DNA of 64,000 nt, from IMG/VR virus record IMGVR_UViG_3300033146_002242, positions 1 through 64,000 of that record; one strand, written 5' to 3'. The translations under genes were made by a program, and so were the position numbers. Source of the DNA: a virus. Below the pieces are notes generated by a model that was not told where the DNA came from, searched no databases, and saw nothing but the letters and a program-made list of their open reading frames with translations. Below, piece after piece: positions 34,531 to 64,000 of this stretch. How positions within the stretch are numbered: position 1 is the first letter of the stretch; each line of letters opens with the position of its first letter.

Positions 34531-35953
34531 GATAAATTTTGATTGATTTTCATTTCTAAATTTTTATTCCAAAAATATATTTCTAGAAAAATTTTTTCGA
34601 ATGTTATTTTTATCTGATCACATATTAAATTAAATTTTTATTAAAATAATCATTTGAGATTGTCAAGATAGAAATATTAAATATAAAAACACAATTTAAA
34701 AATAAGTTTATATAAATCTTTTTTATTTTTAAATATCATTTATAAAAATTAATTTTGAACAACTTAAAATATAAATAATAAGAATAAACCTCATCTGTGT
34801 TTCCCGGAAAAAAAATTACACGGGTTCCCAAGACCCGTGGAATTTTTTTTTGTATCGGTACTAACAAATTTATATAAAAAATATATTTACGGTGGATTAA
34901 ATAAAAAATTTTAAAAATAAATATTAAAAGACGATAGTCTCCAGAATAGATTTTATTCTAAAAAATATATTTCATTATATAATAAATAAAGTTATTAATT
35001 TCAAATATCAATAAATAATGTTTTTATTTTGATGTTAATTTTTAATTTTTAATTTTAATAATCTTTTTTATTTATCTTTATCTGAAATAGATGTTTTGGA
35101 ATATTGGAAATTTGATTTAAGTTATTATAATATCTGAAATAAATATTAATATTAAATATAGATATTTTAATATTGATAAGATTAGATTAACAATAATTCA
35201 AATTATTAATTTTTAGTTTAGTATATATAATTATTATTATTTCAAACTAAAAATATAATTACTAAAATATTAATCAGCTTTCAGCTTTTGTTATCATAAA
35301 TTAATTTTAAGTTGAAATTGCTATTTTGTTATAGATCATTAAATCAATAATACTATAATTTAATATTAAAATTAAAATATTGAAATAACAATTTCACTTA
35401 AAAAGCGAAATTTTACATAAAAATATATATCATATACATGATATCATGTTATAATATAAAAATATAAATACGTGTCGGATATTAGTTGATATTAATATGT
35501 ATTCAAATAGTATTCAACAAATAATAATTCAATTATATGATATACTAGTTTAAAGTTGTATGAATAATATTCAACAATATATTTAAAAGTTTATTTTTTT
35601 TATTTGATAATCTCGTGTAATCTAGTAATATTTCAATTCCACTATTCAGAATTATATGATATTCAAACATAATATTTTAATGTGATAATAACATTTTATA
35701 TAAGATCTACATTATAATTAATTTGTTGAATTTATTTATTAAGATTGTTAGTGTAAATAGAAAAAATTTTGAAATATTTTTTAAGAACATAATAAAACAG
35801 ATGAATAAATAAGATGATTAAGCTAGAAATTTTAAATTTAGCTAAAGATATTAATTTAAATATTTATTTTAAAAACTTTTCAAATTTTATTTTTTTGGCG
35901 CCGGCCCCGAGTGGAACTTAGAATTTTATTTTGGGTTTTTATCTTTGAAAATT

Positions 35954-35967
35954 ACAACATATAATTG
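35954..35967 (+). promoter_or_regulatory. Putative late promoter (ACAACATATAATTG)
   Basis: AACA-N6-TG upstream of ORF 36017. Confidence 0.65.
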
Positions 35968-36016
35968 CTACATATTATATATAGAAAAGTTTAGCTAAGT
36001 GAGGTGACGTAGAGAA

Positions 36017-38170
36017 ATGTTAATTAAACAAGGACCAGAGTATGAAAATGCGGTAAAAATTTTAATATCTCATAAAGATGATAAATATTTTAATAATTGT
36101 AGCTTTACATTGTCAGGTACGAAAGCCAAAAAAATAAATGATGATAAGATTCATAGTTGGAGTGAATTAAAATTTAATTTTGAATTTAAAAATCATGATA
36201 TAAAATTTGGTAGTATTGGTGGTTATAAAAATATAGTATTAGATAGAAGTTCTTTTTTGAGTTGGTTATTATCTATACAAGATGCTGTTAATGACCCTAA
36301 TTGTTATGAAAATGAAGTTACAATTAAAAGAAGAATAAAAGATATAGATTTTTTTGTGAAATTTGCTATTTCGCAAAAATTTAATTGTAATGCAGTTATG
36401 ATAGGGGTATCGACTGCAAAAAGTGGTTTAATATATCTAGGCATTGATTCTAATTTATTTAATCAATATATGATGCAATTAGGTCGATTGTCTATTGATA
36501 TTTTAAATTTTGAAATGGCGTTTGACCAAAGTATTTTATTATATAAAAATAATCAGATTTTAGAATATCAAATTAATCAAAATGAACAAATTCTAAATTT
36601 ATTATCAAATGGTAATTCAATTAATACACCAGTAATTGAAGTAAATAGTGATAATATAGAAATATCAAATCCAGATAATATAATAAGTGATGAACATAAA
36701 TCAGTTGAAGAAGAAAATAATGAAAATATTATTTCAGAAAATGTTGATGAATTTTTAGAAAATTTAGAAGAAAATTTAGAAAAAACTGAATTAGAACCTT
36801 TGTTTGAACAACGTGAAAAAGAATTAACATCTCCACCTGATAGAGAATCAAAAGAAGAACCTACCTTAATTGAAAATTATATAATTGAAAACAAAATTGG
36901 TATAAAGCAATTATTTATTGATTTATATAACAAAGCTGCTAATTCAACATCTTTTACTTTCGATAGTCTATCATATTTTTTTGATTTATTAAAAACTGAA
37001 ATTTATATAGACAAATATATTATAGAAGAAGATAAAAAATCATTATTTTATTTATCTCAAATACAATATTTTAAATTATTAAGTGAATACAATACAACAA
37101 GTAATATTGATAATTTTTATCCAATTCATTTAAAATTTGATATTGCGGAAGATCAAGTAACTGATTTAGAAACAATTAAAAACATCAATGATATTTTAAG
37201 TATTTATATTTATTTATTATCTTTATCTGAAAAATTATCAAATAGAGAAACTGATATAACAAAAAATAAATTATTTTTATGTCAGATTGTTAGATTAATT
37301 TTTGAACCATATTATTTATCGTATTATTGTGCAATGGAATTGATTCCAAATAATTTTGAGACTACTATACTCAATCATTTTTATAAAATTAAAAAAACTG
37401 GATTTTTTAATGATTTTGATTCATTATTAAATGATTATGAATTGGCACCTATATCTGAAAAAGATTTAAGAAAGAATATTCTTAATATAAAAGAATTGAT
37501 TACTGAAAATAGACGACCGTTAAAAAGAATTCATCAAGACTTATTAAAAATAGGTATTATTAAATTATCTTATAAAAATGTTTTTGAATGGGAACATATA
37601 AATGATATATGTAGAATAGAAACTATTTTGAAAGATGGTTATTATACTAAAGAAGAAATTATTGAAATAGTTAGTAAAAACAATATAAAGAATAAAAATA
37701 TTGTTAAATTTTTGAAAAAAGCTTATATTAAAAAACGAAAAGAAGGAGAAGCAGTTCCGTTTTCAGATTTAACTCTAGATGAATTAGAACAAATTGTTTC
37801 TCATATATCTGGTGCAGATAACACACCATTGGTAAGATATATAAATAAATATTTAAAAGATGTATCTTATAAAAATGAATTAATAGAATTTGCTAAATTA
37901 CATAGAGACAAAGATATAAATTTATTAGAATTACCGGAATCGATTAATATACATCAGCTACCTGAAAATATATTAATAGCTTTATATAAATGGAAAAATG
38001 TTAAAAATGATAAAAATTTAAAAAGTTATTCATATTTTATCAAATTAATAGAAAATTGTATTGAATCAAAAAGTGATATTATAGCTGTTTATGTAGCTGA
38101 AAAAGAAAATATTTTAAATAACATAGAGAATAAAAATGTCGATGATTGGTCGATATTAGACGGGGATTAA
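36017..38170 (+). CDS. Large hypothetical protein
   Basis: 717-aa ORF, first gene of the rightward block. Confidence 0.7.
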   Translation: MLIKQGPEYENAVKILISHKDDKYFNNCSFTLSGTKAKKINDDKIHSWSELKFNFEFKNHDIKFGSIGGYKNIVLDRSSFLSWLLSIQDAVNDPNCYENEVTIKRRIKDIDFFVKFAISQKFNCNAVMIGVSTAKSGLIYLGIDSNLFNQYMMQLGRLSIDILNFEMAFDQSILLYKNNQILEYQINQNEQILNLLSNGNSINTPVIEVNSDNIEISNPDNIISDEHKSVEEENNENIISENVDEFLENLEENLEKTELEPLFEQREKELTSPPDRESKEEPTLIENYIIENKIGIKQLFIDLYNKAANSTSFTFDSLSYFFDLLKTEIYIDKYIIEEDKKSLFYLSQIQYFKLLSEYNTTSNIDNFYPIHLKFDIAEDQVTDLETIKNINDILSIYIYLLSLSEKLSNRETDITKNKLFLCQIVRLIFEPYYLSYYCAMELIPNNFETTILNHFYKIKKTGFFNDFDSLLNDYELAPISEKDLRKNILNIKELITENRRPLKRIHQDLLKIGIIKLSYKNVFEWEHINDICRIETILKDGYYTKEEIIEIVSKNNIKNKNIVKFLKKAYIKKRKEGEAVPFSDLTLDELEQIVSHISGADNTPLVRYINKYLKDVSYKNELIEFAKLHRDKDINLLELPESINIHQLPENILIALYKWKNVKNDKNLKSYSYFIKLIENCIESKSDIIAVYVAEKENILNNIENKNVDDWSILDGD

Positions 38171-50265: not shown

Positions 50266-51198
50266 TTAGTTATTCCAGTTTATCTGACCTGGAGTAACTT
50301 TTCCATAACAGTTAATGGTGATGTTGAAATTAGCCTGAGCTATTTCAACATCACCATTTTCTGTTATTTTAATTTTCACCGGGGCCGGCGAAACAACCGC
50401 CAACCCCGGCTTTCCATTGATATCAATTCCCGACCCAGGGATTACAATAGCTGGATCGGGGATATCTTCTTCATCGCCATCACTACAAATGATGGCGATG
50501 TCATCTACACCTCCCTTCTTTTTTAATACACCTCCGATTACAAGGTGTTCCATTTTGCTATCATTGGGGTCGGCTGCGAACCACGCCGCTAAATCCCGCA
50601 GCCGATCGTTTAATATTTTTTTCTCAATAGGTGAATCTGGTACCAGGCCTCGATTCACCCACACTTCAAAACCCCCAGCTTCCACCTTGTAGAAACTGGG
50701 AGTAACTAATTGCTTAGCCTTGTCCATAAAGGACTCGGCTTTTTTATTTTTTGTTGCGGTTTCTGTCTTATTATTAATCAAGTCAGTGGAGCAATTCCTG
50801 ACTTGATTAATGGCCCATGGCGCTGCTGTTGCCATGATTCCAATAGCAACAGCAGCAACTATGTGTCCTTGAAGGAGATTGGCCGACTCCTCCAAACCCT
50901 TGCCGACAATCAGGTTCTTTACGAACCAAATTCCGGCAAGGGAACCAATTCCTAGAATAATTAACCCGCCCAATGGATGGTTTCCCATCCACCAGCGGGT
51001 TATATAAAAACCAGCTGGGGCCGAGCATATTGCCCAGCACCACAGCCAGAATCCCCTATGGGATTCATCAAGACGACGAATCCCATAGAATGCCCCAATA
51101 ATGGTCAGGAAGGTCCCGACCATTAATAGATCATTTACTGTTATAGCGATGCTGTGCAGCACCGCCATTACTTGTTCATAAATAGTTTGTTCGTTCAT
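50266..51198 (-). CDS. Multi-pass membrane protein, GC-richer than flanks
   Basis: Four hydrophobic helices then a soluble domain; AAGGAGG RBS. Confidence 0.7.
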   Translation of the reverse strand: MNEQTIYEQVMAVLHSIAITVNDLLMVGTFLTIIGAFYGIRRLDESHRGFWLWCWAICSAPAGFYITRWWMGNHPLGGLIILGIGSLAGIWFVKNLIVGKGLEESANLLQGHIVAAVAIGIMATAAPWAINQVRNCSTDLINNKTETATKNKKAESFMDKAKQLVTPSFYKVEAGGFEVWVNRGLVPDSPIEKKILNDRLRDLAAWFAADPNDSKMEHLVIGGVLKKKGGVDDIAIICSDGDEEDIPDPAIVIPGSGIDINGKPGLAVVSPAPVKIKITENGDVEIAQANFNITINCYGKVTPGQINWNN

Positions 51199-51263: not shown

Positions 51264-51503
51264 CTCCTATTTAATTTATATACCATAGTAGGATTAACTA
51301 TGGTCACAATAACAATAAGATTGTTATTAGTATTAATTAATATATATAATAAAGTTGAGTTAAATAAATTGATAATTTATTATTTTTATTATAATTAAAT
51401 AGTGTTATTATATATATTCATTCTTGATATTTGAGATTGGTTTTTATTTTTAGAGAACATAAAAATACATTCATATATTATATTGCAAGGAGGTTTAAAC
51501 GAT

Positions 51504-52094
51504 ATGAATTCTATAGAGAAACCATCATATAATTATGATTTGATTATTTTATTTTCGGGTGGTGCTGATAGTGCCATGTTACATGATTTAGCAATATCAT
51601 CAAAAAGACATCCAATTTATTTAATGATTGATTATGAACAATTGCATAAAGAAGAATTACAATATGCTAAAAGATTGTTAGAATATTGTAAATCTATTCA
51701 ACATTCACAAACTGTAAAAATTCAGAATTTAAAAATAAATTCTGGTTTGACAGGTGATGGTGAAGTAAATCAATATAATAATGTTCATCCTTTTCATGTA
51801 CCATCTAGAAATCTTATGTTTATCTCGATTGCAGCTTCTATTGCAGAAGCTAATAATATTGATACTATTTGGTATGGCGCTGATTTATCAGATAGGGAAA
51901 ATTTATTTCCTGATTGTTATCAGGAATGGATTATAAAAGTTAATGAACTTTTGAAAATAAATGGAAGTAAACCAATAAAATTGGAAGCTCCATTAATAGG
52001 AATGACAAAAGATTCTATTTTACAATATTTGAAATCTAGAGGTTATAGAGAAGAAATTATTTTTTCTGGATATGGTAATTTAGATAAAAATTAA
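51504..52094 (+). CDS. queC: QueC-like (7-cyano-7-deazaguanine synthase family) protein lacking the C-terminal Zn cluster
   Basis: FSGGADS, DYEQLHKEE, VPSRNLMFISIAASIA, FPDC; late-promoter motif at 51454-51467. Confidence 0.8.
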   Translation: MNSIEKPSYNYDLIILFSGGADSAMLHDLAISSKRHPIYLMIDYEQLHKEELQYAKRLLEYCKSIQHSQTVKIQNLKINSGLTGDGEVNQYNNVHPFHVPSRNLMFISIAASIAEANNIDTIWYGADLSDRENLFPDCYQEWIIKVNELLKINGSKPIKLEAPLIGMTKDSILQYLKSRGYREEIIFSGYGNLDKN

Positions 52095-52139: not shown

Positions 52140-52820
52140 ATGGACGATACAAGAATTTTAATTACAAATGAATATTATCCAAAAGGATTAAATGATGTGC
52201 AAGTGCAAAAACATTATAAGAAATATCAAAAAGAAATTTTATTAGAAGTACAACGAAGAAAAGTTGCTCTTGTAATCTGTCCAGATACAAATAATTTAGT
52301 TTGGTTAAGGAATATTAAAAATAAACCTATTTATTTAAAGAATAGGAGAGATTTTCAAAATATAATTCATGAAAGAGTTTTATCAATTTTTCCTGAAATT
52401 CAACAGTATGAAAAGAAATTAGTTGTTGATATTGATTGTACTAATATTAATAATGCAAAAAAAGTAGCAAAATTATTATATAATATATTTACAAAGTCTG
52501 GATATATTACTGATGTAAAAATATTTTTTACTGGACAAACATCTTTTCATTTACATTTATTTTTACCTAATAAAACAAATATTGAGAGAGGTAAAGAATT
52601 AGTTGATGGGTTAATTAGGAGAGATGCATTTGCTCCAAAATTAATGACAATCAATCAAAGAAGGCCCAAAGATGAATTCCCAAATATAGATTTTTCAACT
52701 TTTAAAGAAAGATCAATTTATATTTGTCCATATTCATTATCAAAATTTGGGTTAATTGCGGGAGAAGTAAAAATAAATGAAATAGATTCATTTAATATAC
52801 AACATTATAAAGTTAAATAG
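52140..52820 (+). CDS. AEP primase-polymerase (LigD polymerase-domain-like)
   Basis: VVDIDC (DxD), FTGQTSFHLHL, IDF..ICPYSLS. Confidence 0.8.
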   Translation: MDDTRILITNEYYPKGLNDVQVQKHYKKYQKEILLEVQRRKVALVICPDTNNLVWLRNIKNKPIYLKNRRDFQNIIHERVLSIFPEIQQYEKKLVVDIDCTNINNAKKVAKLLYNIFTKSGYITDVKIFFTGQTSFHLHLFLPNKTNIERGKELVDGLIRRDAFAPKLMTINQRRPKDEFPNIDFSTFKERSIYICPYSLSKFGLIAGEVKINEIDSFNIQHYKVK

Positions 52821-53393
52821 TTTATTCACTAAATAAGAGTGAGGCGGGCCTCGGCTAAGCAGAATAAATATTATATATATTTGCTCACTAAATAAGTGAG
52901 ATATTGTTGTGTTGTTTGGATAAATATTATATATGTTTGCTCACTTATTTAGTGAGACTGGATTTTTCCCTATCATCAGAATATTAATTAGATAAAAACA
53001 TATTTGCTCATTAAATAAATGAGATATAACCTGGCCGTTATTTTAATTAAATATTATGTATTTGCTCACTAAATAAGTGAGAGATTATGTTCTTTTGATT
53101 TAGGTATTAAAGTATTTTGAATAATATATGTTTGCTCATTAAATAAATGAGACAGGGCGTAAGAAGGTAAAAATAAATGAAATAGATTCATTTATAATAT
53201 ACAACATTATAAAGTTAAATAGTTTGTTCACTAAATAAGTGAAATGAGATTATTTTGTTTTTTATTAGATTATTAATCAAATAAAAACATGTTTGCTTAC
53301 TAAACAAGTGAGATGGGGATAGAGAGTTTGGACGTAAATCAGGTTTTTAAAATAAAATATATGTTTGCTCATTAAATACAATAAAAATGAGAA
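52820..53393 (+). CRISPR. Degenerate type V-like CRISPR array, 9 repeats
   Basis: Core TGTTTGCTCACTAAATAAGTGAGAC-like repeats ending at 52845, 52902, 52958, 53025, 53083, 53153, 53250, 53314 and 53393; 6-bp 3' hairpin plus 2-nt tail; non-identical spacers. Confidence 0.75.
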
Positions 53394-53484
53394 AAGTAGC
53401 TAATGTAATTTGTTTTAAAAAATAAAAAGAGTTATATATATTTATAAATAGTAGAAATGATTATAATTTTATATAGGTAATAAA

Positions 53485-54015
53485 ATGAAAGCTAATATTG
53501 AAAAAGAAAAACTTTTTAAAAAGTTTATAGATAATGGAGAAATTTGGGCTGATAAATATGGTAATATTTATAAGAAAAATGGAACTTGTAAATATCATTT
53601 AAATAATACTGGTTATTATAGATTATCATATAAATCAATAACTATTTTTGTGCATAGGTTGGTTTGGATTTATTTCAAAGGATTGATATATGATGATAAG
53701 CTACAAATTAATCATATTGATGGGGATAAATTAAATAATACTTTGGAAAATTTAGAAATTGTTGATAATAAAACTAATACAAAACATGCTATACTAATGG
53801 GTTTACGAACACCCATATCAGAAAAAACAAAACAATATTTTTCTGAAAAGATAAGGGGGTGCAAAAATATAAATGCAAAATTTACACAATCCGATGTTAT
53901 TTTATATAGGTATTTATATAAAATGGGCAAAATAAATATAAAAACAATTTCTGAAAAATACGATATAACACAACGAAGTGTAAAAAATATGTTGAGTGGA
54001 AAAACATATAATTAA
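53485..54015 (+). CDS. Free-standing HNH homing endonuclease with C-terminal HTH
   Basis: [30 protein letters not shown]. Confidence 0.88.
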
Positions 54016-54022
54016 GTTATAT

Positions 54023-54382
54023 GCCCGGATGGCGGAATAGGTAGACGCAAGGGACTTGACTCGTAAATAAATTGAGCGGCATATTTGAAAAAATATGTTT
54101 GAATCGGGTGAATTCAGGGGAACCTTCTTAATTTTATTTAGAATTAAATGGCAATCCTGAGCCAAGACATCAACGCTTTGATGGAAGGTGCAGAGACTAG
54201 ATGGTGAGGAAAGATACGTTTCTCGTAAAACATCATAAGCGCCCGACACCTAAGGATTTTATTTTAATCTATGGTGATGATATAGTCCAGACCACAAACA
54301 TTGTAAAATGGCAATGAAAATTGTAGTGGTACGAAAATCCCTCGTTCGTAAGAACGTGCCGGTTCGATTCCGGCTCCGGGCA
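54023..54382 (+). tRNA. trnL: tRNA-Leu(UAA) interrupted by a group I intron
   Basis: Exons 54023-54057 and 54334-54382 rebuild the cloverleaf with AGGGA-CTTAAAA-TCCCT and a long variable arm; AACA-TATAAT-TA motif at 54003-54014. Confidence 0.92.
54058..54333 (+). mobile_element. Group I intron (IC3, trnL-type), 276 nt, no ORF
   Basis: GGCAATCCTGAGCC, GTGCAGAGACTAGATGG and ATATAGTCC core motifs; 5' exon ends in U, intron ends in G; inserted between U34 and A35. Confidence 0.9.
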
Positions 54383-54407
54383 TCAATTTAATTTAAAAGG
54401 AGGATGA

Positions 54408-54638
54408 ATGGAACAACAACATATGTCGAATAGTAAACCCTTATACATACACACATCAGATGGGTGTGTATATCGGGAAGATATATCGTTATATGCCTGT
54501 GATATATCATTTGAAGAAGTTATGGAAAAAGAAGTGAACTATTATATAAATAATGGATATAAAAATATCACTCCTAATGGAGTTGATGTCACTTTTTATC
54601 CTCCCAGTCAAATCCTAAAGTTTACTTATAAACGATAG
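54408..54638 (+). CDS. Hypothetical protein
   Basis: AAGGAGG RBS. Confidence 0.6.
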   Translation: MEQQHMSNSKPLYIHTSDGCVYREDISLYACDISFEEVMEKEVNYYINNGYKNITPNGVDVTFYPPSQILKFTYKR

Positions 54639-54649
54639 GATTTAAAAGA

Positions 54650-55080
54650 ATCGACAAAAACTTTTCGTTGTGGTAAATTGTAGTTCGCGAACACCACAAC
54701 ATAGGTGGGTAGATTGCACCTCTCCACCAAAAGTTACAAAACGATTGCCATTCTCGGCCAAGAATGGAAAAAGGTATTATTCGTTTATTGCTCGGAATGA
54801 ATAATATGCTTCGGTGAAGGCATCGGAGAATATAAAAAGAATTAAATAGCTTTGAAAATCAGGATTAACAAATATTGATACTCTCAGATTGCGAAGCCTC
54901 AGAGCTCTTAGATGAGCAGCCGGAGGATAGGCTGAGAGTTGGAGTCGTCGATACAGGGAGTCCAGAGAATACTGTCAAGTCTTAAGGCTTCGGTAGCAGT
55001 ATTTGATGACGGACCCGGTGCAGTGTAGAAGCTAGTCTGGTAACAGAAGGCAAGGCCACCGAAAGGCGCATGGCCCATGC
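54650..55080 (+). ncRNA. Large structured ncRNA candidate containing repeat module copy 1 (54881-55051)
   Basis: Series of hairpins (GTTGTGGT/ACCACAAC, CCATTCT/AGAATGG, TATTATTC/GAATAATA) then a module duplicated at 55946. Confidence 0.6.
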
Positions 55081-55378
55081 CTCGGATTTGCTTGCGGGGC
55101 TTTTTATCCTAAGGAGCGAAATTATGTTATATGAGTGTAATACCGGACTTAACTGTTCTGAGTGTAGAGGGTGTGCTACGCAACTTGAAGTTTGTTCGGA
55201 CTTTATCTCCCTTGAATACCTTTCAGAAGAGTGTACGCACAGAAATCTAGAAATGGAGTTGGAAGTGCCTATAACCAGAGAAAAAACCCCGAGAATATCT
55301 TAGCTACTTGTTAGTTTTGTGGGGCGTAGGGCAAGTTAACTCACGATGTTTTTGAAAAATTGAATAAGGAGTTAGACC

Positions 55379-55816
55379 ATGAAAGTATATCTTACAAGAC
55401 GAGTTGCTAATATGACAGATGGTATGGGGCCCATGCAAATCGACAAGTGCTTTCTTTACGAAGGGCATGCTAACAAGTATATAAATGCCCAACCAGGAAT
55501 TATGGGAAGGCGAGCATGTTGGAGCAAGAGAGAGGTTGGAGACTGGGATGTTATCCCTTTAGAAGTTATTGAAGAAGATATTATTGGTAACACCCGGTCT
55601 GCTAATGAGATTAAAATAGAAGACTTGGAAGACTGGACTACGCAAATTTGGAAAGAATACGCTGCCGAATTATATCAAGGGAAATGTCTGATACTATCGG
55701 TTTCTTTGGGAAGAGGGGAATACCAGGTAACTCTTGGTAAAGAAGTTCTCTACCGAGGGTCTGATAAAAGTAAGGCTAAGTATGCGTATGAGGAAGTCAC
55801 AAAACTGGACGACTAG
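55379..55816 (+). CDS. Hypothetical protein between the duplicated RNA modules
   Basis: AAGGAG RBS, GC-richer codon use. Confidence 0.65.
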   Translation: MKVYLTRRVANMTDGMGPMQIDKCFLYEGHANKYINAQPGIMGRRACWSKREVGDWDVIPLEVIEEDIIGNTRSANEIKIEDLEDWTTQIWKEYAAELYQGKCLILSVSLGRGEYQVTLGKEVLYRGSDKSKAKYAYEEVTKLDD

Positions 55817-55945
55817 GGTTAAAGTTAAGGGTATCTGTGCATAATAGGGTTAAAGTTCCTCCCTGCTGGATGTGTATAAACCAGTCTACACTTGGTATAA
55901 AGACTAAAGGTGGGGTCGACTCCCATTGCCCGCACTATTTTGACA

Positions 55946-56118
55946 CCTCTGGATTGCGAAGCCTTGTACCCTTGTTTAGAGGGAGCCGAGAGGATAGGCC
56001 AGAGGTTGGAGTCGTCGATACAGGGAGTCCAGAGAATACTGTCAAGTCTTAAGGCTTCGGTAGCAGTATTTGATGACGGACCCGGTGCAGTGTAGAAGCT
56101 AGTCTGGTAACAGAAGGC
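55946..56118 (+). repeat. Structured RNA module copy 2 (direct repeat of 54881-55051)
   Basis: 114 bp identical (54938-55051 = 56005-56118); 5' part differs by compensatory changes. Confidence 0.85.
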
Positions 56119-56312
56119 GCGGGGCGTTTTTTAAAAAAATAATAAAATGTATAATGGATATTTATATCTAAGAAAAAATATTAAAAAATTAATAAAATTA
56201 TATAGGCAGTATAATAAAAGTTTTATGAAAAAGGATTGAAAGAAAATATAATAAACATCGGAATAAATATAATTGATTTTTTTTATTACATCAAATTAGT
56301 TGAGAGGAGATT

Positions 56313-58355
56313 ATGGAGTTTATTGATTTTGTCGGGAAAATAAAAAAGAATTTTGAATATATGAAATCAAAATCTGATATTTTATTTTATACTACAAGAG
56401 ATAGAAATAAAATATGGGAAACATATTTACAATCATTTCCAGAAGGATCAAATCCAATATATAAAGAAAGAACTGAACATGATTGTAATGCATGTAAATC
56501 ATTTATAAGACAATTTGGATCCATTGTTGTCATAGATCCATCTGATTTAAAGATGTTATCTATATGGGATATGGAAATAGGTGGTTCATATCAAGATGTT
56601 GCTGATGCAATGTCACGATATGTTAAATCACATCCTATTGAAAATATTTTTATGCATAATGAAAAAAATATGGGAATTGAATGTAATAGACAAGAAGTAG
56701 GTGGTAAAATTCTGAAATGGCATCATTTTCATTTAAAAACACCATCTAATATATTAGTCAATAAAGATGTAATAAATGAAATCAAATCAGAATCAAGAGC
56801 CAACAAAGAAGTATTATATAGAAGTTTAACTGAATTAACAATTGAATCTGCTGAAATTGTATTAGATTTAATTGAACAAAATACATTGTATCGTGGCCGT
56901 GAGCATAAAAAAGTTGTGGAACTATTTATTGAATTAAAGAAACAGTTTAATAAAGTACCAGATAATTTAAAAGATCATTGTTGTTGGCTAACATCAGTTT
57001 CATTTAAATCATTATCAAAAATTAGAAATACTGTTATAGGTACATTATTATCTGATTTATCAGAAGGAAAAGATATTGAAGATGCTGTAAAAGCATATGA
57101 ATTTAAAGTAGCTCCTTCGAATTATAAAAGACCGAAAGCTATTGTAACTAAATCAATGATTTTACAAGCTCAAAATACTCTTAAAGATTTGGGTTTATTA
57201 GAATCATTGGAAAGAAGATATGCAACAATATCAGATATATCTGTTAATAATGTATTGTTTGCAGATAGATCTGTTAAACCAGCAATGAAAGATGTGTTTG
57301 ATGAATTATTAGAACAAACACCTGAAAAAATAAAAAAATATGATAATGTTGAAAAAATTCATATTGAAAAATTTATATCTGATGTATTACCAAAAATTAA
57401 TACACTTGAATTATTTATTGATAATAAACATTTAAATAATTTAGTAAGCTTAACAACAGCTGTTAATCAGGATGCACCTTTTTTATTTAAATGGCCGAAT
57501 CATTGCGCATGGTCATATACAGGTGACGTGGCAGATTCGATCAAAGAAAAAGTAAAGCAAGCTGGTGGAAAAGTTGATGGTGTTATACGGTGTTCTTTAT
57601 CATGGTATAATACAGATGATTTAGATATACATGTAATTGAACCCAATCAAAATGAGATTTATTATTTAAATAATACTTCATTCACATCTGGAAAATTAGA
57701 TGTTGATATGAATGCCTCTGCACGAAAAGCTGTGAGAGGTGCTGTTGAAAATATTACATGGAACAACAGAAATAGAATGTTGGAAGGTAATTATGATTTG
57801 ATTATTCATAATTATAAAGTTCGTGAACGTAATATTGATGTTGGGTTTGAAGTTGAAATTGAACATAATGGACATGTATATAGTTTTAATTATCCAAAAC
57901 ATGTTAGCCATTCAAAGCCAATTAAAGTTGCAACATTTTATTATAATCCAAGAACAGATGAATTCAAATTAATATCATCCATACAATCAACTGAAAATAT
58001 AAAAGTTATAGATGAATGGAATATAAAAACAAATCATTTTCATAAAGTCCAATTATTATTGATGTCTCCCAATTTCTGGGATAATGGTAATGGATTTGGT
58101 ATTGGTAATAAACATTATTTCTTTATGTTAGAAAATTGTAAAAACCCAGATAATTGTCGGGGTTTTTATAATGAATATTTAAAAGCTGATTTAACTAAGC
58201 ATAGAAAAGTATTTGAGATTTTAGGGTCTAAAATGAAAGCTCCATATACTGACAATCAATTAAGTGGTATTGGATTTTCAGAGACACAAAAAAATAGAGT
58301 TATTGTTAAAGCGAGTGGGTCTTTCAATAGGCCATTAGAATTAATTTTCCAGTAA
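56313..58355 (+). CDS. Conserved jumbo-phage hypothetical protein with a YfaP/DUF2135-like segment
   Basis: SLSWYNTDDLDIHVIEP..LDVDMNA..AVENITW. Confidence 0.7.
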   Translation: MEFIDFVGKIKKNFEYMKSKSDILFYTTRDRNKIWETYLQSFPEGSNPIYKERTEHDCNACKSFIRQFGSIVVIDPSDLKMLSIWDMEIGGSYQDVADAMSRYVKSHPIENIFMHNEKNMGIECNRQEVGGKILKWHHFHLKTPSNILVNKDVINEIKSESRANKEVLYRSLTELTIESAEIVLDLIEQNTLYRGREHKKVVELFIELKKQFNKVPDNLKDHCCWLTSVSFKSLSKIRNTVIGTLLSDLSEGKDIEDAVKAYEFKVAPSNYKRPKAIVTKSMILQAQNTLKDLGLLESLERRYATISDISVNNVLFADRSVKPAMKDVFDELLEQTPEKIKKYDNVEKIHIEKFISDVLPKINTLELFIDNKHLNNLVSLTTAVNQDAPFLFKWPNHCAWSYTGDVADSIKEKVKQAGGKVDGVIRCSLSWYNTDDLDIHVIEPNQNEIYYLNNTSFTSGKLDVDMNASARKAVRGAVENITWNNRNRMLEGNYDLIIHNYKVRERNIDVGFEVEIEHNGHVYSFNYPKHVSHSKPIKVATFYYNPRTDEFKLISSIQSTENIKVIDEWNIKTNHFHKVQLLLMSPNFWDNGNGFGIGNKHYFFMLENCKNPDNCRGFYNEYLKADLTKHRKVFEILGSKMKAPYTDNQLSGIGFSETQKNRVIVKASGSFNRPLELIFQ

Positions 58356-58391
58356 ATATATTTTTGTTTAATTCCAAACAAGGAGATAAAG

Positions 58392-58775
58392 ATGAGTGAT
58401 GTGAATTTGTTTGAACTTGCAAGTCGTATGAAATTTCGTTTTGATACCACAAAAGGGCAGTTATCCGTAGAAGATTTATGGGATATTCCCATGACTGGAA
58501 AAGTGTCATTAGATGCCATTGCTATTGATTTAAATAAAAAATTGAAGGACACCAATGAAAGTTTTGTAGTCCAAAAAAGCAGTGCTAATAAAATTATTGA
58601 ATATAAATTTGATTTAGTTAAATATGTAATTCAGACCCGCTTGGCTGAAATTGAAGCGCGGCAAAAAGAGAAAGAAAATAAAGAAAAGAAACAAAAGATT
58701 CTACAAATTATCGAAGAAAAGGAAAACGAATCATTGAAAAATATGTCTATTGAAGAATTGAAAAAAATGATTTAA
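58392..58775 (+). CDS. Conserved phage hypothetical protein
   Basis: LFELASRMKFRFDTTKGQLSVEDLWDIP. Confidence 0.7.
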   Translation: MSDVNLFELASRMKFRFDTTKGQLSVEDLWDIPMTGKVSLDAIAIDLNKKLKDTNESFVVQKSSANKIIEYKFDLVKYVIQTRLAEIEARQKEKENKEKKQKILQIIEEKENESLKNMSIEELKKMI

Positions 58776-58780
58776 TTTTA

Positions 58781-58823
58781 TTTTGTCGAGAGTGGATTAA
58801 TTTAATTTCCACTCTCGACAAAA
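58781..58823. terminator. Terminator-like hairpin
   Basis: TTTTGTCGAGAGTGGA/TCCACTCTCGACAAAA. Confidence 0.7.
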
Positions 58824-58929
58824 TAAATAGGAGATTTTATAATGGAATCTTTGCAATATAAATATAGTAATGATGTTAATTTTCGTAAACTTGTTGATAG
58901 TTTAGATGCAGTTATAGAGAGAAAAACAA

Positions 58930-59181
58930 ATGAATAAAAAATTAATTATATGTTCGGATTTTTTAAAAAATATAGATGATTTTATATATAATTATAATTT
59001 ATCATTAAATGAATGTGTAAGAATTGTAAAATATGATTTTTATTATAAAATTCGAGGGTATAAAAATTTACCATTTATTATTATACCTCCAATAACGTTT
59101 ATATGTGAATTTTATGAAATTGCTAAAATACAACAATTTTTTGAAATACAAGAAAATCAAATAGAAGAATATTTTTTTTAA
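58930..59181 (+). CDS. Hypothetical protein
   Basis: 83-aa ORF. Confidence 0.5.
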   Translation: MNKKLIICSDFLKNIDDFIYNYNLSLNECVRIVKYDFYYKIRGYKNLPFIIIPPITFICEFYEIAKIQQFFEIQENQIEEYFF

Positions 59182-59263
59182 AATGTATTTTGAACTATAT
59201 ATAATAAATAGTATTATGAAGAATATATTTTTATTATTTTAAAGAACATAGGAATATATAATA

Positions 59264-59479
59264 ATGAAAATGGAACTTCCTGTTAAAACGATTTTTAAAT
59301 GCACCTCATATTGTAATTTTACAATAGAAGTTATTGAAAATGACGATCTTACATGTTCAGATTGCTTTTTTGATGATAGAAAAATAGATTATGATTCGGA
59401 CACAATGTGGTGTCATTTATTAAAATGTGCAAAAGATGAAAGAACTGATCATAAAAATGTGATATTTAAAAGAGTGTGA
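59264..59479 (+). CDS. Small Cys-rich protein
   Basis: CSDCFF..C..ERTDHKNVIFKRV; late-promoter motif near 59243-59256. Confidence 0.6.
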   Translation: MKMELPVKTIFKCTSYCNFTIEVIENDDLTCSDCFFDDRKIDYDSDTMWCHLLKCAKDERTDHKNVIFKRV

Positions 59480-59483
59480 TTAT

Positions 59484-59556
59484 GCCGGGTTAGCTCAATT
59501 GGCAGAGCAGTTGATTTGTAATCAACAGGTTGTGGGTTCGATTCCCATGCTCGGCT
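59484..59556 (+). tRNA. trnT: tRNA-Thr(UGU)
   Basis: Cloverleaf, GTTGA-TTTGTAA-TCAAC, TTCGATT loop. Confidence 0.93.
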
Positions 59557-59579
59557 TTCAATTTAACGAGGAGTTGAAG

Positions 59580-59891
59580 ATGGATGAAACTTTAAAAAAA
59601 ATTTATGGTATGATTCCAAGATTGCCACAAAGACAAGATTCATTAGCAGCACAATTTGCTGATTTAAAAATATTTGCAAATTCAATGGGAATGTATGATG
59701 CTGCTGATGCAATATCTCAATGGATTGTTAATATGCCTAAATTAAAATTTGGGTGTTATTGTGATTTGGAAGAAGGGCATAAACCTGATGAATGTGTGAT
59801 TAATTTGGGTAAAAAATCCAATTGTATATATGCAAAAAATATTGAACGCCCCGAACAATGTGAGTATTGGAGACCTATATCTAATGAGTAA
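59580..59891 (+). CDS. Hypothetical Cys-rich protein
   Basis: GAGGAG RBS before ATG 59580. Confidence 0.6.
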   Translation: MDETLKKIYGMIPRLPQRQDSLAAQFADLKIFANSMGMYDAADAISQWIVNMPKLKFGCYCDLEEGHKPDECVINLGKKSNCIYAKNIERPEQCEYWRPISNE

Positions 59892-60192
59892 TTGGGTATT
59901 TATAATTAAAGTTTGTATTTTATGTCAATTAGTAGTATTTTTTATATGTATGCAAATAAGTAAATATGAGGGGTATCCACCATCAGTTTGGAATGTTGCG
60001 GAATTAAAAACTAATATTATTATCTCAATTATTTTTCCAATTGGGATAGTATTTATTATATATTGGTCTTTAAATATAATTGGTGATATTGTTTCAGACA
60101 AAATAGAATACATAAAATCTAAATTGCGAATACATAGCAAATGGCAATATATAATTGATAATATATGGCCAAAGTTAACAAAAAAATTATAG
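59884..60192 (+). CDS. Small membrane protein (paralogue of 61492..61710)
   Basis: KY.GYP..W...E..IFPIG motif shared. Confidence 0.6.
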   Translation: MSNWVFIIKVCILCQLVVFFICMQISKYEGYPPSVWNVAELKTNIIISIIFPIGIVFIIYWSLNIIGDIVSDKIEYIKSKLRIHSKWQYIIDNIWPKLTKKL

Positions 60193-60201
60193 GAGTGATT
60201 A

Positions 60202-60525
60202 GTGGCAGATGAAATTTTGGATAATGATTATATATTAGAATTGAAATTATTATCTAGAGTGAGAAAGCGGTGTTTTTTAGATCCAGGGTTTCTCACGAAA
60301 GTAATTCAAGCGGGAGTAGCTGGTATCCAAGAATATGCGGATACACAATCTCGCCGGGCTGCTGACATGGAAACATTCGCGTCAGCTATGGCCTTTCTTC
60401 AAAAACAAGAAAGATTATCACCAAAATTAAAAAAACAAATGAATGATTTAGCTTTAGCTAAACTAGAAAAATGGATGGGCAAAACATCTCTTAGATGGGA
60501 TGATGATATAATAAAAAAGGAGTGA
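60202..60525 (+). CDS. Hypothetical protein
   Basis: AGGAG RBS, GTG start. Confidence 0.6.
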   Translation: MADEILDNDYILELKLLSRVRKRCFLDPGFLTKVIQAGVAGIQEYADTQSRRAADMETFASAMAFLQKQERLSPKLKKQMNDLALAKLEKWMGKTSLRWDDDIIKKE

Positions 60526-60713
60526 TATTATGGATAAATCCCTTAAAAATAAAAATGCTTGGGGTAAATTTTTTGAGCAAATGAAAAAAGAAGAAAATAT
60601 AGAAATAACTGTTGATTCTAAAAAACATATGCGGCATATTGAAAAATCATATGAAAAAACTAATCAAGCATATTTACACGCTAGACATATGGTGGTTAAA
60701 TAAAGGATGTAAA

Positions 60714-60977
60714 ATGGAATGGATTGATGTAAAATCAAAATTGCCTATGGAAGAATTAAAAGGTCAAAAAGTTATTGATCGTTATATGGTTACTGTTTAT
60801 CCAAAAGATATGGATCCTGTTGAAGGTCCAAGAGTATTGATTTTATGGTTTTCAGCAGAAAATATGGAATTTTCAACTGAACCTGGTGGGTTTAAATATG
60901 AAAAAATGCACGATCATTTTGTATCACATTGGGCAGAATTACCGTGTCCAGCTAAATTAAATAATGAAAAAAATTAG
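60714..60977 (+). CDS. DUF551-like phage protein
   Basis: MEWIDVKSKLP..VSHWAELP. Confidence 0.7.
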   Translation: MEWIDVKSKLPMEELKGQKVIDRYMVTVYPKDMDPVEGPRVLILWFSAENMEFSTEPGGFKYEKMHDHFVSHWAELPCPAKLNNEKN

Positions 60978-61374
60978 AAGAAAAATTAAAAGATTAGATT
61001 TAGAAAATTGGCAAAAAATGGTATGTGAAATAAATGATAATGATTATGTAGGAATGAAAGAAATAACACCTATAATAAATAAAAATGGATGTTATTTAGA
61101 GGAAAATAAGTGTTGGTTTGAATATAGTGGCAGAGCATTTACATATAACAAGGAGGATTTTTTATACACATTGAAAATTCTATCGATGCCAAATTTTAGT
61201 GAATTACAAAAAAAATCATTAGAAGATTTTATAAAATATAATAAAAAAATTGCAAGTAAACATCAAAAAGAAATGTTATATATGATGAAACAAGAGGAAG
61301 ATTTGAAAAAAGCTATTAGAGATATAAAAAAAATAAAATTCAAAATAAAAAAGATAAAAAAGATGAAAAAATAA
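60964..61374 (+). CDS. Hypothetical Lys-rich protein
   Basis: 136-aa ORF. Confidence 0.55.
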   Translation: MKKIRRKIKRLDLENWQKMVCEINDNDYVGMKEITPIINKNGCYLEENKCWFEYSGRAFTYNKEDFLYTLKILSMPNFSELQKKSLEDFIKYNKKIASKHQKEMLYMMKQEEDLKKAIRDIKKIKFKIKKIKKMKK

Positions 61375-61389
61375 ATTAAATTGTAATAT

Positions 61390-61462
61390 GGGTCATTAGC
61401 TCAGTTGGTAGAGCAACTGACTTTTAATCAGTAGGTCCGGAGTTCGATTCTCCGATGACCCA
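61390..61462 (+). tRNA. trnK: tRNA-Lys(UUU)
   Basis: Cloverleaf, ACTGA-CTTTTAA-TCAGT. Confidence 0.93.
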
Positions 61463-61491
61463 TCATTTATTTATAAAAAGAGAGGTGTTTT

Positions 61492-61710
61492 ATGAAAATA
61501 CAAATTTGGCAGATATATTTACTGGTAGTATGCATTCAATTATTAACTTTTTTAATAATAAGTCATATAGCTCGAAAATATGGTTATCCTATAAAGACGT
61601 GGACACTGAGAGAATGGTCATTCGCTATTTTAATGACTTTTATATTTCCCATAGGGTGGTTAGAAATATTCAGAGCTTCTATATGGCCATTTCTTATTAA
61701 AGAAAGATAA
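61492..61710 (+). CDS. Small membrane protein (paralogue of 59884..60192)
   Basis: RKYGYPIKTWTLREW..IFPIG. Confidence 0.6.
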   Translation: MKIQIWQIYLLVVCIQLLTFLIISHIARKYGYPIKTWTLREWSFAILMTFIFPIGWLEIFRASIWPFLIKER

Positions 61711-61734
61711 ATATTTAAAATATTAATTTAATAA

Positions 61735-61823
61735 GGAGAGGTGGTCGAGTTGGTTTAAGGCACCGGTCTTGAAAACCGGCGAGGGTTTATAGCCTTCCGT
61801 GGGTTCGAATCCCACCCTCTCCG
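61735..61823 (+). tRNA. trnS: tRNA-Ser(UGA)
   Basis: CCGGT-CTTGAAA-ACCGG, long variable arm. Confidence 0.93.
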
Positions 61824-62094
61824 TCAAAATATTAATATTATTTAAAAAGGATTAATATGATAAATACAATTTTATTAGTAATATCTATAATTGGGTTATT
61901 GGTATTAATAGTGTTGGGTATTTTATTTATAATCGAGATAAATAAAATATTTAATCGAGGTATATCAAATGAAACAATCGAAAAAATATTAGATAGAAAA
62001 CCAATTTTTTGGATACCTCCATTTAATTAAAAAATTTACATTTGCATATTAAGTAAATATGACGATTTATACTTTTTATTTATAAATTTAATGT

Positions 62095-62168
62095 GTGGGT
62101 GTGGCCTAGTCTGGTAAGGCACCTGATTTGGGATCAGGAAATCGGAGGTTCAAATCCTCTCACCCGCA
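62095..62168 (+). tRNA. trnP: tRNA-Pro(UGG)
   Basis: CCTGA-TTTGGGA-TCAGG; acceptor GTGGGTG/CACCCGC. Confidence 0.9.
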
Positions 62169-62333
62169 TCAATTTTGTAATTTTTAAATTTGCACTATGA
62201 ACAATAGTGACAAATAGCAGAGGATTGTAAATGAGGAGATACAGATTGATATATATTATCATTAGTATATATTCCATAATAATTTATAAATATTACACAT
62301 TATACTAATGTGGCGGCTGGCGTTGGATTTAAT

Positions 62334-62570
62334 ATGATTATATATCGATGTGATAGATGTAATAAAAAAATGGATGAAGATGAGAATCGTAGAATTGAAG
62401 GATTTAATAAATTTTCATCTAATGATATTATGCATTTTACAATTTCAATAAAGCCAGATAATAAACATTTTTGTCATGATTGTATCAGGCTTATGGTAAT
62501 CAATGCATTAGAAGATCCCAACAATAATATATTATATGGGTGTAATACAAAATATATTAGTAATAAATAA
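62334..62570 (+). CDS. Small Zn-binding protein
   Basis: YRCDRCNKK..HFCHDC. Confidence 0.6.
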   Translation: MIIYRCDRCNKKMDEDENRRIEGFNKFSSNDIMHFTISIKPDNKHFCHDCIRLMVINALEDPNNNILYGCNTKYISNK

Positions 62571-62649
62571 ATTTATTTATGCATTACACATTTTAAATGT
62601 GACAATATAATATTGTATTATTTTTTAAAAAAAGTGAAAGGAGCTTTGT

Positions 62650-64000
62650 ATGAAGAAAGTTGTTGTGAGAAAATATAGATGTTGGGAGCCTTTGAATATG
62701 GGGCAGGATGTAATTACCCAGTTGTGGTTGCAAAATCAAATGTGGAATAAATTAGTAGAGATGGAACAAAATTTATATAAGAAGTATAGAGAAGTTATGT
62801 CTACTGATACAGCAGTAGCTGAAATTGAAGAAAAATTAACTCAAAATGATACTGCTATTAAAGCATATATGGAAGAAAGAAATGAAATAAGGAAAAAACT
62901 TAAAAAGAAGAAATGTGCTGAAACAGCATATTTTGATGAACAAATTAAAGAATTATCAGCAGAATCAAAAGAGCTTCGTAAGATAGCTCGGGAAAAAAGA
63001 AAAGAAGCAAAAGAAAAAGTTAAACCTTTACTTGATGAAATCAATCAAGAAAGAAAGGAAAGAAGAAAAAAAATATATCAAAATTCGGGGTTGTTTTGGG
63101 GTAATTATAACAGAGTCATGGCATCATTTGATATCGCTGTATCAAAATCGATGAAAACTGGCAGCACTTTACGTTTTCATCGATTTGATGGAACTGGAAT
63201 TTTTAAAAATTTCTTGTCCCCCGGCCGAACAAATGATGACATGTTAAATGGAAAGTTAAGTTACTTACATTTACAGGACATTCCTGCTGAGTCATTTAAT
63301 GATTATATCGGTAGAAATAATCCATGTAAAATGGTTCTCGGTAGTCGTAGAGAAAGATCACGAAAATATGGGCTTCTCAAATTCACGATTTATCGAGGAA
63401 AAGATGAAGAAGGAAATAGAATAAATAGAATGTTAGAAATGCCAGTGCTGCTTCACCGTCCATTGCCAGATGATGAAGATTTATTAATTAAAGAAGCCGT
63501 TGTACGGCGGGAGTGTGTATCACCCGGTGAATATAGATGGTTTTTTATATTAACATATGTTGGTGGTGAATTTCAGCCAGTTCAACATGTTAATACTGGT
63601 AGTGTTGCTGGTATTAACATGGGTTGGAAAACTGTCAATAATAATACATTGCGAATTGCTACTTTGGTGTCGGATAAAGAAACAGTACATTTCATTCTAC
63701 CAGAAAAAATTATGAAAACATATGATTATTTAAATCAATTAAAATCGGAAGTCGATAGCATGATTAACCATGCTATTGCTAGAATAAAAGAGATTATGAA
63801 AGATGATGATGAACTTCCTGAATCAATGGGAGTTTATTTAACCAGAATAACAAAGGCCAAACGGCCGCGATATGATTTATTAGAGAAAATGATGTGGGTA
63901 TGGGATAAAGAATTGTCATATAAACCAGAAGAATTTTCTGAGGCAAAGGCTCATTTTGATTATCTTAATCGTGTTTTATCTGAGATGAATAATTTGAGAG
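62650..64000 (+). CDS. cas12m: Cas12m-like (type V-M/V-U1) effector with non-catalytic RuvC-I, 3'-truncated by window edge (450 codons visible)
   Basis: Manual translation from AAAGGAG/ATG 62650: QLWLQNQMWNKLVEME, long coiled coil, GLFWGNYNRV, LRFHRFDGTG, LEMPVLLHRPLPDD, VAGINMGWK; parallels recalled MmCas12m LYWATFNAV, LRHHRWDGTG, IDVPVQQHRMLPAD, IAVHLGWR. Confidence 0.8.
   Translation, partial: MKKVVVRKYRCWEPLNMGQDVITQLWLQNQMWNKLVEMEQNLYKKYREVMSTDTAVAEIEEKLTQNDTAIKAYMEERNEIRKKLKKKKCAETAYFDEQIKELSAESKELRKIAREKRKEAKEKVKPLLDEINQERKERRKKIYQNSGLFWGNYNRVMASFDIAVSKSMKTGSTLRFHRFDGTGIFKNFLSPGRTNDDMLNGKLSYLHLQDIPAESFNDYIGRNNPCKMVLGSRRERSRKYGLLKFTIYRGKDEEGNRINRMLEMPVLLHRPLPDDEDLLIKEAVVRRECVSPGEYRWFFILTYVGGEFQPVQHVNTGSVAGINMGWKTVNNNTLRIATLVSDKETVHFILPEKIMKTYDYLNQLKSEVDSMINHAIARIKEIMKDDDELPESMGVYLTRITKAKRPRYDLLEKMMWVWDKELSYKPEEFSEAKAHFDYLNRVLSEMNNLR

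Follow-up and report, generated by a model that had tools for sequence, protein, structure and literature searches.

The 64,000-bp window analyzed here (bases 1-64000 of the 118,287-bp virus record IMGVR_UViG_3300033146_002242) contains the first 450 codons of cas12m, the gene for a type V-M CRISPR effector, and a family of short hairpins that we call handles. The DNA is 26% GC and the record is 38% complete; coordinates above 64000 are in record numbering, on the plus strand. cas12m begins with an ATG at 62650 on the plus strand and is open at the window edge (62650-64000). The open reading frame (ORF) track available for this DNA requires a stop codon and misses ORFs that are open at the 3' end, so the gene was absent from it, as a preliminary description of the sequence had pointed out. 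In the record, the stop lies at 64404 and the full product is 584 amino acids (aa). The handles occur in two settings, an irregular array 9.2 kb upstream of cas12m and a set of lone units close to the gene. All of them lie outside long ORFs and on the cas12m strand.

The protein is a Cas12m (type V-M) and has all of the family features that can be computed. The motifs quoted in the preliminary description are all present within the 450 visible codons: W150-x-x-Y-N-x-V, RFHRFDGTG (residues 175-183), PV..HRPLP (265-273) and GINMGW. The catalytic position of RuvC-I is Asn323 (codon AAC, 63616-63618, plus strand), as had been described. The residue aligned with it is an Asn in PpCas12m (N408 in its table) and, in MmCas12m, the His named in that description, which is His317; the PpCas12m site N-D-D and His317 are both given in Table S2 of PMC11013384. 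The downstream sequence that had been called for adds RuvC-II (D478, in place of the catalytic Glu), RuvC-III (D568, intact), the zinc finger and three further handles. The triad is thus N323/D478/D568. His269 and Arg270 of the WED domain are invariant, as are the four Cys (C541, C544, C558, C561) of the intact zinc finger. Pfam PF07282 matches above its cut-off. The helical "roof" insertion of REC and the helical insertion of RuvC are both present in the predicted structure (helices 18-170 and 352-471, mean pLDDT 83), whereas TnpB has neither, and at 584 aa with full-length homology the protein falls within the size range of Cas12m (about 540-630 aa).

Comparisons with known proteins agree with this assignment. 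The top five matches in a PDB sequence search are Cas12m proteins (E 2.6e-49 to 6e-17, the best being a full-length match to 23vw, E 2.6e-49), followed by TnpB (4.5e-5). The predicted structure has TM scores of 0.62-0.70 against Cas12m and 0.41-0.44 against TnpB. Among the proteins that have been tested, PpCas12m of a Pelobacter plasmid is the nearest (35% identity over 586 columns), and its N-D-D residues align with N323, D478 and D568. N-D-D is found in six of the six nearest homologs (45-52% identity) and in 32 of 178 aligned proteins. In a quick tree with two TnpB proteins as outgroup, the phage protein is sister to the homolog P0005 within an N-D-D group that is itself sister to the PpCas12m group (SH-aLRT 99). 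The identity proposed in the preliminary description therefore holds: the protein does not group with IS200/IS605 TnpB, but falls in the N-D-D Cas12m clade with PpCas12m.

The predicted loss of DNA cleavage, also proposed there, is well supported by analogy, and a nuclease-dead state is normal for the family. Cas12m orthologs with N-D-D, H-D-D or D-E-D sites bind double-stranded DNA (dsDNA) without cutting it (PMC11013384). The characterized N-D-D proteins include PpCas12m and MkCas12m (PMC11013384) and PmCas12m, which is nuclease-dead in vivo and in vitro (10.64898/2026.03.26.714355). As a further N-D-D Cas12m on a phage, the effector alone is ordinary and not new, and the novelty initially attributed to it was overstated. 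Type V-M systems are known on plasmids and prophages (PMC11656645), one of eight tested Cas12m proteins originates from IMG/VR (PMC11013384), and a phage Cas12m is described in a 2026 preprint (10.64898/2026.09.14.751636).

The array (52821-53410, plus strand) consists of nine handle-plus-guide units, A0 to A8, with stems starting at 52825, 52884, 52940, 53007, 53065, 53135, 53227, 53296 and 53368. The handles have a 6-bp stem, a 5-nucleotide (nt) loop and an AT-rich 5' part; A0 and A8 are degenerate. In the shortest units, 17-19 nt separate the repeats. The stem-loop of A2 (52940-52956) matches the reverse complement of the A1 and A4 stem-loops exactly, with the loop flipped, as a small inversion inside the palindrome would give.

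The lone handles, M1 to M7, all on the plus strand, lie around cas12m and the tRNAs. M1 (62041-62063, stem at 62045) is about 30 nt before tRNA-Pro and is followed by AT-rich sequence. M2 (62189-62211, stem at 62193) lies just after tRNA-Pro, and M3 (62292-62314, stem at 62296) is followed by a GC-rich 17-mer (53% GC). M4 (62583-62603, stem at 62587) is in the cas12m leader, with its stem 63 nt before the start codon and an AT-only tail. M5 (stem at 64462, 12-nt loop) lies 58 nt past the cas12m stop, M6 (stem at 64535, 6-nt loop) is also downstream of the gene, and M7 (stem at 66341) follows tRNA-Met; the M7 stem is identical at 11 of 12 nt to the repeat stem of the related locus L007. The lone units before cas12m are spaced 103-291 nt apart. 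Behind M2 there is a stretch resembling a ribosome-binding site and then a 25-codon hydrophobic ORF (62231-62308) that reaches into M3; a small Cys-containing ORF (62310-62570) follows M3. A near-perfect hairpin of about 18 bp (64409-64455, plus strand) lies directly after the cas12m stop.

The handles share their core with the repeats of Cas12m relatives. The arrays of relatives are regular, lie next to the gene (on both sides in L005) and consist of GC-rich repeats of 32-37 nt. The plan common to these repeats has three GC bases followed by a single unpaired base, a G, a 6-bp stem of the form C...G, and then AC; the loop opens with the partner of the three GC bases, forming a pseudoknot. In the MmCas12m structure, His269 and Arg270 read the last base and the stem-capping G-A pair (PMC10442227). 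The phage handles retain the purine ahead of the 6-bp C...G stem, the stem itself, and the purine and pyrimidine that end the core. The stem flanks are G..A, A..G or A..A and never G..G, and the last base is C or T in 14 of the 16 units. Position agrees as well. The relatives' repeats lie 48-73 nt before and 16-178 nt after the gene, and M4, M5 and M6 sit in matching places; M4 occupies the position of the last array repeat of L005 (48 nt before the gene) and L006 (73 nt).

A motif taken from the relatives, G-C[TGA]C-NNN-loop-NNN-G-A with 6-bp pairing, matches the record six times, all on the cas12m strand, and nothing else, with 0.4 matches expected. The matches are A1 to A5 and M2, the only lone unit that fits. 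The link between the protein and both repeat classes that the preliminary description had drawn is supported, and both the array about 9 kb upstream and the mini-repeats near the gene are real and commoner than chance. A wider hairpin pattern gives 11 matches in the 13.5 kb from 52.9 to 66.3 kb and 2 in the other 105 kb. The same pattern occurs 2.5 times per 100 kb in 80 distant phage loci, collected by a search with a 680-aa gene and used as controls, and a related jumbo phage, G404, has no such hairpin in its syntenic tRNA cluster. Among 11 units, all 66 stem cells are paired and five of the six stem pairs show two-sided changes. A log-odds matrix built from the relatives placed A2, A4, M7, A5, A1 and M2 in the top 15 of 249 hairpins; it was dropped in favor of the motif test, as it favors GC and ranked tRNA arms high too.

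The handles differ from those of relatives in the loop. Among 27 arrays of relatives, the loop is 9 nt in 24, 7 nt in two that belong to the nearest clade, 6 nt in a single array and 5 nt in none. In the phage, the U-run before the stem can pair with the A-rich loop through A-U and G-U pairs only (82% of cells, with a G-C swap in A7), and a weak A-U pseudoknot is possible on these grounds. At residues 435-440 of the phage protein (P0001), and likewise in P0003 and P0005, the basic cluster that the PpCas12m group has in the RuvC helical insertion is replaced by mostly neutral or acidic residues. The replacement is a trait of the subclade in which repeat loops are shorter, and the two changes may be connected. 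No description of short-loop Cas12m handles or of lone handles among phage tRNAs was found in the literature searched.

The sequence behind the array handles has the composition expected of short guides. In the array, the 17 nt after the handle are 38% GC (58/153) versus 12% (18/153) for the next 17 nt (p 1.4e-7), a contrast that is partly confounded, and the best break comes after position 12. Cas12m forms a 17-bp heteroduplex and its guide is trimmed to about 17 nt (PMC10442227; 10.64898/2026.03.26.714355). About half of the units (A0-A3, A5, A7, M2, M3 and M6) look like live guides. M1, M4 and M7, with their AT-only tails, may be terminal repeats, processing sites or remnants. GC-rich guides in a genome of 26% GC suggest that the targets would be outside the phage.

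Duplication produced part of the array. The final 70 nt (52767-52837) of a primase-polymerase-like gene (52140-52820) recur within the array at 53167-53239, and spacers A4 and A6 are related. These features fit a frozen array that was altered by duplication and mutation rather than by Cas1-Cas2. No cas1 was found on the 118 kb, where positive controls were detected, in a record that is 38% complete and in which cas2, cas4 and a tracrRNA were not searched by profile. The earlier statement that adaptation genes are missing is supported for cas1 on this record. A search of IMG/VR for relatives of the array gave 48 single matches and no tandem copy.

The gene itself seems to have come from elsewhere. 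Its GC content at third codon positions (GC3) is 0.26, compared with 0.12 for phage genes and 0.38-0.62 for relatives, which fits gain from a GC-richer donor followed by partial adaptation. The genes beside the nearest homologs have their best matches on Desulfosarcina and Geoalkalibacter plasmids. This points to Desulfobacterota as the source of cas12m; it does not name the host. A search of 400 sampled Desulfobacterota genomes found no closer Cas12m. Three RuvC-I Asn homologs (P0005, P0012 and P0177) share the AT-driven amino-acid bias of the phage protein and may be from other low-GC phages.

The locus would work like type V-M, and because two canonical RNA features (the pseudoknot and a regular adjacent array) are missing, it is a variant. 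We think it probable that cas12m and its handles make up a binding-only, RNA-guided roadblock, in which hairpins in phage transcripts would be bound and trimmed and 12-17-nt guides would block transcription or replication of host or co-resident DNA. We postulate that a type V-M module (array - cas12m - array) was acquired by a jumbo phage with its own RNA polymerase, with a plasmid of Desulfobacterota type as the probable donor, and that it persisted as a roadblock that, to judge from the family, would bind DNA and not cut it. The protein is undamaged in all of the RNA- and DNA-binding features that were checked. Acquisition genes were not found on the record, and the arrays would have drifted toward AT, grown by internal duplication and been split by inserted tRNAs and small genes. 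Selection would have retained the part of the handle that the WED domain reads, that is, the purine-purine pair, the 6-bp stem and the last base of the 3' core. Transcripts through the array and the tRNA cluster would carry the hairpins, which Cas12m would bind and trim. The next 12-17 nt would then serve as guides, and Cas12m would sit on dsDNA flanked by a protospacer-adjacent motif (PAM). The DNA blocked in this way would be GC-richer than the phage, for example host genes or co-resident plasmids and phages.

Several observations weigh against this interpretation. The handles lack two features that nearly all relatives have, a GC pseudoknot of 3 bp and a loop of 7-9 nt, the loop being 5 nt in 11 of the 16 units, and A2 breaks the pairing between U-run and loop. 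The same short handles occur in no close relative examined, a set that does not include the locus of the sister protein P0005. Some of the statistics are also less independent than they seem. The five array matches to the relatives' motif are tandem copies, and that test therefore amounts to roughly two independent loci. The hairpins themselves were the source of the wider pattern, and the stem covariation is partly circular, the lone units having been picked by pairing. The GC contrast behind the array handles is confounded in part, since from position 18 on the sequence runs into the AT-rich beginning of the following repeat, and the corresponding contrast in the lone units is weak (p = 0.057). 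The record holds no regular array of near-identical repeats adjoining the effector, with 62% of the genome outside it, and that missing part could hold such an array or another effector.

The lack of targets is a further point against it. No target was found in any search, which covered the record itself, G404, Desulfobacterota, plasmids and phages. Self-matches of all 16 guides in the available 118 kb, with or without a YTN PAM, are no better than with shuffled guides or by chance, and nothing in the 38% of the genome available supports a role in regulating genes of the phage itself. The array gave chance-level matches only against 401 Desulfobacterota genomes. The best match covering a guide, 20 nt over A0 in one genome (G004, E 0.011 per genome), was set aside: it lies within a coding region and lacks a T-rich PAM, and a match of this quality is to be expected when 400 genomes are searched. 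PLSDB and INPHARED yielded AT-rich noise only, the A7 guide has no exact match in IMG/VR, and none of the guides matches G404. Matches between spacers and mobile elements were not significant in any database searched, where short guides and a choice of genomes made without a host assignment limit power. The preliminary description had proposed silencing of host defense genes, rival phages or the phage's own genes. With self-targeting at chance and no host-defense or rival target found in these searches, silencing of any of the three would be an extrapolation from the family.

A more specific version of the roadblock is possible, and we offer it tentatively. The Cas12m module may have turned into a fixed multi-guide transcription regulator, with a co-evolved protein and a minimal handle of about 23 nt (a 5-nt loop and no GC pseudoknot). 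Its seed-length guides would be directed at host promoters, and some of them would be made from the tRNA-containing transcript.

Cas12m could instead act mainly on RNA, binding or cutting the hairpins to split the tRNA-plus-mRNA transcript and limiting its own expression through M4, with DNA targeting minor. We regard this as unlikely as the main role, and it can be compatible with the roadblock for some units. The placement of the lone units fits it: M1 precedes tRNA-Pro, M2 and M7 follow tRNAs, and M2, M3, M4 and M6 come shortly before start codons. The AT-only tails of M1, M4 and M7 would make poor guides, Cas12m proteins cut their own pre-crRNA (precursor of CRISPR RNA, crRNA) without RuvC, and single repeats are often seen upstream of cas12a, where a regulatory role is presumed (10.1101/2023.03.03.530964). 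However, a role on RNA leaves unexplained the nine tandem units with differing GC-rich 12-17-mers in non-coding DNA. In addition, the related phage has the same tRNA cluster without hairpins, and the DNA-binding roof and the RuvC insertion of the protein are intact.

It is rather improbable that the hairpins are relics, that is, decaying acquired arrays beside a gene that has not yet been lost or that relies on crRNAs from a host plasmid or on an array within the 62% of the genome that is missing. The lost pseudoknot, the uneven spacing, the lack of targets and the incompletely adapted GC3 of cas12m would all be expected of a relic, as would an array that arose partly by duplication, including the end of the upstream gene, and that contains the related spacers A4 and A6. 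Nevertheless, neutral decay would not keep all 66 stem cells paired while the stem letters change. Such changes are found also in array units, which were chosen by position (A6 ends in U-A and not C-G; pair 5 of A3 and A5 is not that of A1). Nor would neutral decay retain GC only behind the handle, and the protein keeps all of its motifs at about 50% identity to relatives.

We give still less credence to the view that the hairpins have nothing to do with this Cas12m and are promoter or operator dyads, serve an additional effector encoded in the missing DNA, or act as RNA decoys that ward off a Cas12m of the host. In its favor, the phage encodes an RNA polymerase of its own, several hairpins precede genes, a DNA dyad would allow the reversed loop of A2, and viral crRNA-like RNAs that hijack host Cas proteins have been described (10.1101/2024.10.29.618823). 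Against it, the hairpins cluster in the array and around cas12m, with the 2 stray matches elsewhere, and their asymmetric flanks match the ends of Cas12m repeats. Furthermore, the record yielded no Cas12m/TnpB-like gene other than cas12m, and carriage of the cognate effector does not sit easily with a decoy.

Two other explanations are very improbable. That the protein is a nuclease-dead TnpB (TldR-like) with a downstream omega-RNA is already largely refuted: the 150 nt of non-coding sequence after the stop do fold strongly (z -8.5) and NCBIfam TnpB models match weakly, but the folding is due to stand-alone perfect hairpins, Rfam finds nothing but tRNAs downstream of cas12m, the TnpB models score 34-50 bits against cut-offs of 100-425 (NF038281, 33.9 versus 425; NF040570, 50 versus 100), no Y1 transposase was found on the record, size, roof insertion, fold and tree are those of Cas12m, and relatives use CRISPR repeats. 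Membership in IS200/IS605 TnpB (HMM, or hidden Markov model, scores below cut-offs and no Y1 transposase) and in TldR (a Cas12m-derived protein with repeat-type handles) was rejected on this basis. An active nuclease, for which one could cite the intact RuvC-III Asp, the still acidic RuvC-II residue and the proposed activity of rearranged RuvC sites in some TnpB branches (PMC10691335), is hardly credible given that the tested N-D-D orthologs (PMC11013384; PmCas12m) do not cut and neither did D-E-D Cas12m.

Several known systems resemble the roadblock that we favor. PpCas12m of the Pelobacter propionicus plasmid pPRO1 (WP_011733919.1; PMC11013384) is N-D-D, its repeat ends in a G-[CTC...GAG]-AC core, and, as at the phage locus, no adaptation genes are annotated beside it. 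It differs in being plasmid-borne with an adjoining regular array of identical 36-nt GC-rich repeats that have a 9-nt loop and a 3-bp GC pseudoknot, whereas the phage has about 16 non-identical AT-rich handles, mostly with 5-nt loops, an array 9 kb off and lone units among tRNAs. MmCas12m2, GoCas12m and PmCas12m (PDB 8HHL, 8PM4; PMC10442227; 10.64898/2026.03.26.714355) share the fold (TM 0.62-0.70), the roof, the His-Arg pair and a non-canonical RuvC; their 17-nt guide and silencing by binding count as likenesses that would apply here by analogy. The Mm and Go proteins are only about 20% identical to the phage protein, and all three use a full-pseudoknot crRNA scaffold in cellular hosts.

Cas12m is known from other viruses. 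MvCas12m of myxophage MV-1 (10.64898/2026.09.14.751636) is likewise viral and without targets found, and MV-1 has no cas1, cas2 or cas4, but its site is D-E-D and it adjoins a regular 8-spacer array. A GenBank virus, Rctr197k (KX853510), encodes a distant homolog with a 1.5-kb array beside the gene. Eight further viral loci in IMG/VR (L059-L066) have homologs, and the arrays of L062-L064 are degenerate. In one of the eight, L061 (3574-6425), nine dispersed 40-nt repeats lie 235-664 nt apart, 3.6-6.4 kb upstream; they are unlike the Cas12m repeat.

Repression by dead phage-borne effectors also has precedents outside type V-M. If the roadblock explanation holds, TldR proteins (PMC10705468, PMC13418256) would be alike in their dead RuvC, fixed guide, repression by binding and carriage on phages. 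TldR is TnpB-derived and has one long omega-type RNA and a known target gene, whereas the phage protein is Cas12m-derived and accompanied by many short repeat-type handles. Cracr arrays, single repeat units and mini-arrays (10.1101/2024.10.29.618823, PMC11656645) share degenerate repeats, seed-length guides, multiplexed phage units and repression without cutting. These Cracr/Racr RNAs borrow a host Cas protein (types I and V-A), whereas the phage described here encodes its own effector among the hairpins. Similarly, repression by a dead phage effector was proposed for the "dCas14" of a huge phage (PMC7162821), which differs in being Cas12f-type.

The phage that carries the locus is of the jumbo type. 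Its portal protein is nearest to those of Bacillus phages BpSp, AR9 and PBS1 (25-27%), and the record encodes a multi-subunit RNA polymerase, a family B polymerase and a gp23-type capsid. Searches with the primase-polymerase and the helicase found no close phage relatives. A scan for sigma-70-like promoters gave chance-level results only. The related G404 is about 30-55% identical in 20 genes and has the same 680-aa gene and tRNA cluster; no cas12m was found in its 46%-complete record. The tRNA cluster within the window (54024-62170, plus strand) contains Leu with a group I intron, Thr, Lys, Ser and Pro, and beyond the window it continues with Gln, Asn and Met, on the strand of all handles and cas12m. 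The intron (Rfam RF00028, 76.9 bits) splits the Leu-type tRNA (54024-54384); an HNH endonuclease ORF (53485-54015) lies directly upstream of this tRNA and not inside the intron, and G404 has a tRNA-Leu(TAA) without intron at the corresponding place.

A few other features of the record deserve mention. A GC-rich element of 129 nt is present in two copies, 96% identical, at 54923-55051 and 55990-56118, in a GC-rich region (54.6-56.1 kb). It is probably a structured RNA; it has no match in Rfam at E below 1. A very AT-rich gap of 1.47 kb (34546-36017) coincides with a switch of gene direction and is likely an origin or a pair of divergent promoters. A 310-aa membrane-like protein (50266-51198, minus strand) is encoded opposite to the local gene direction at 45% GC in this 26% GC genome, and no homolog was found among 5.8 billion proteins searched. 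The family B DNA polymerase (83238-86483 of the record; L166:5239-8481) has a weak N-terminal match to uracil-DNA glycosylase (24.1 bits, just below cut-off), a QueC gene lies at 51483-52094, and several genes at about 43.7-50.2 kb were judged by eye to be probable glycosyltransferases. Together these are hints of modified DNA.

Based on our results, we conclude that the distinctive part of this locus is not the effector but its RNA handles, with their short loop and no GC pseudoknot. Should the short handles prove to be the real guides, they would reveal the extent to which the Cas12m crRNA scaffold can shrink, which matters for compact Cas12m tools for CRISPR interference (CRISPRi) and base editing. 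They would then also represent a stage between adaptive immunity and hard-wired regulation, with an intact effector and with arrays that have been frozen, scattered and cut to handle plus seed. If the fixed-regulator reading is true, this jumbo phage would have a counterpart of TldR that is derived from Cas12, and its handle would be shorter than in any of the 27 arrays of relatives that we examined. Discovery of a target would reveal what a jumbo phage gains from silencing DNA as opposed to cutting it.

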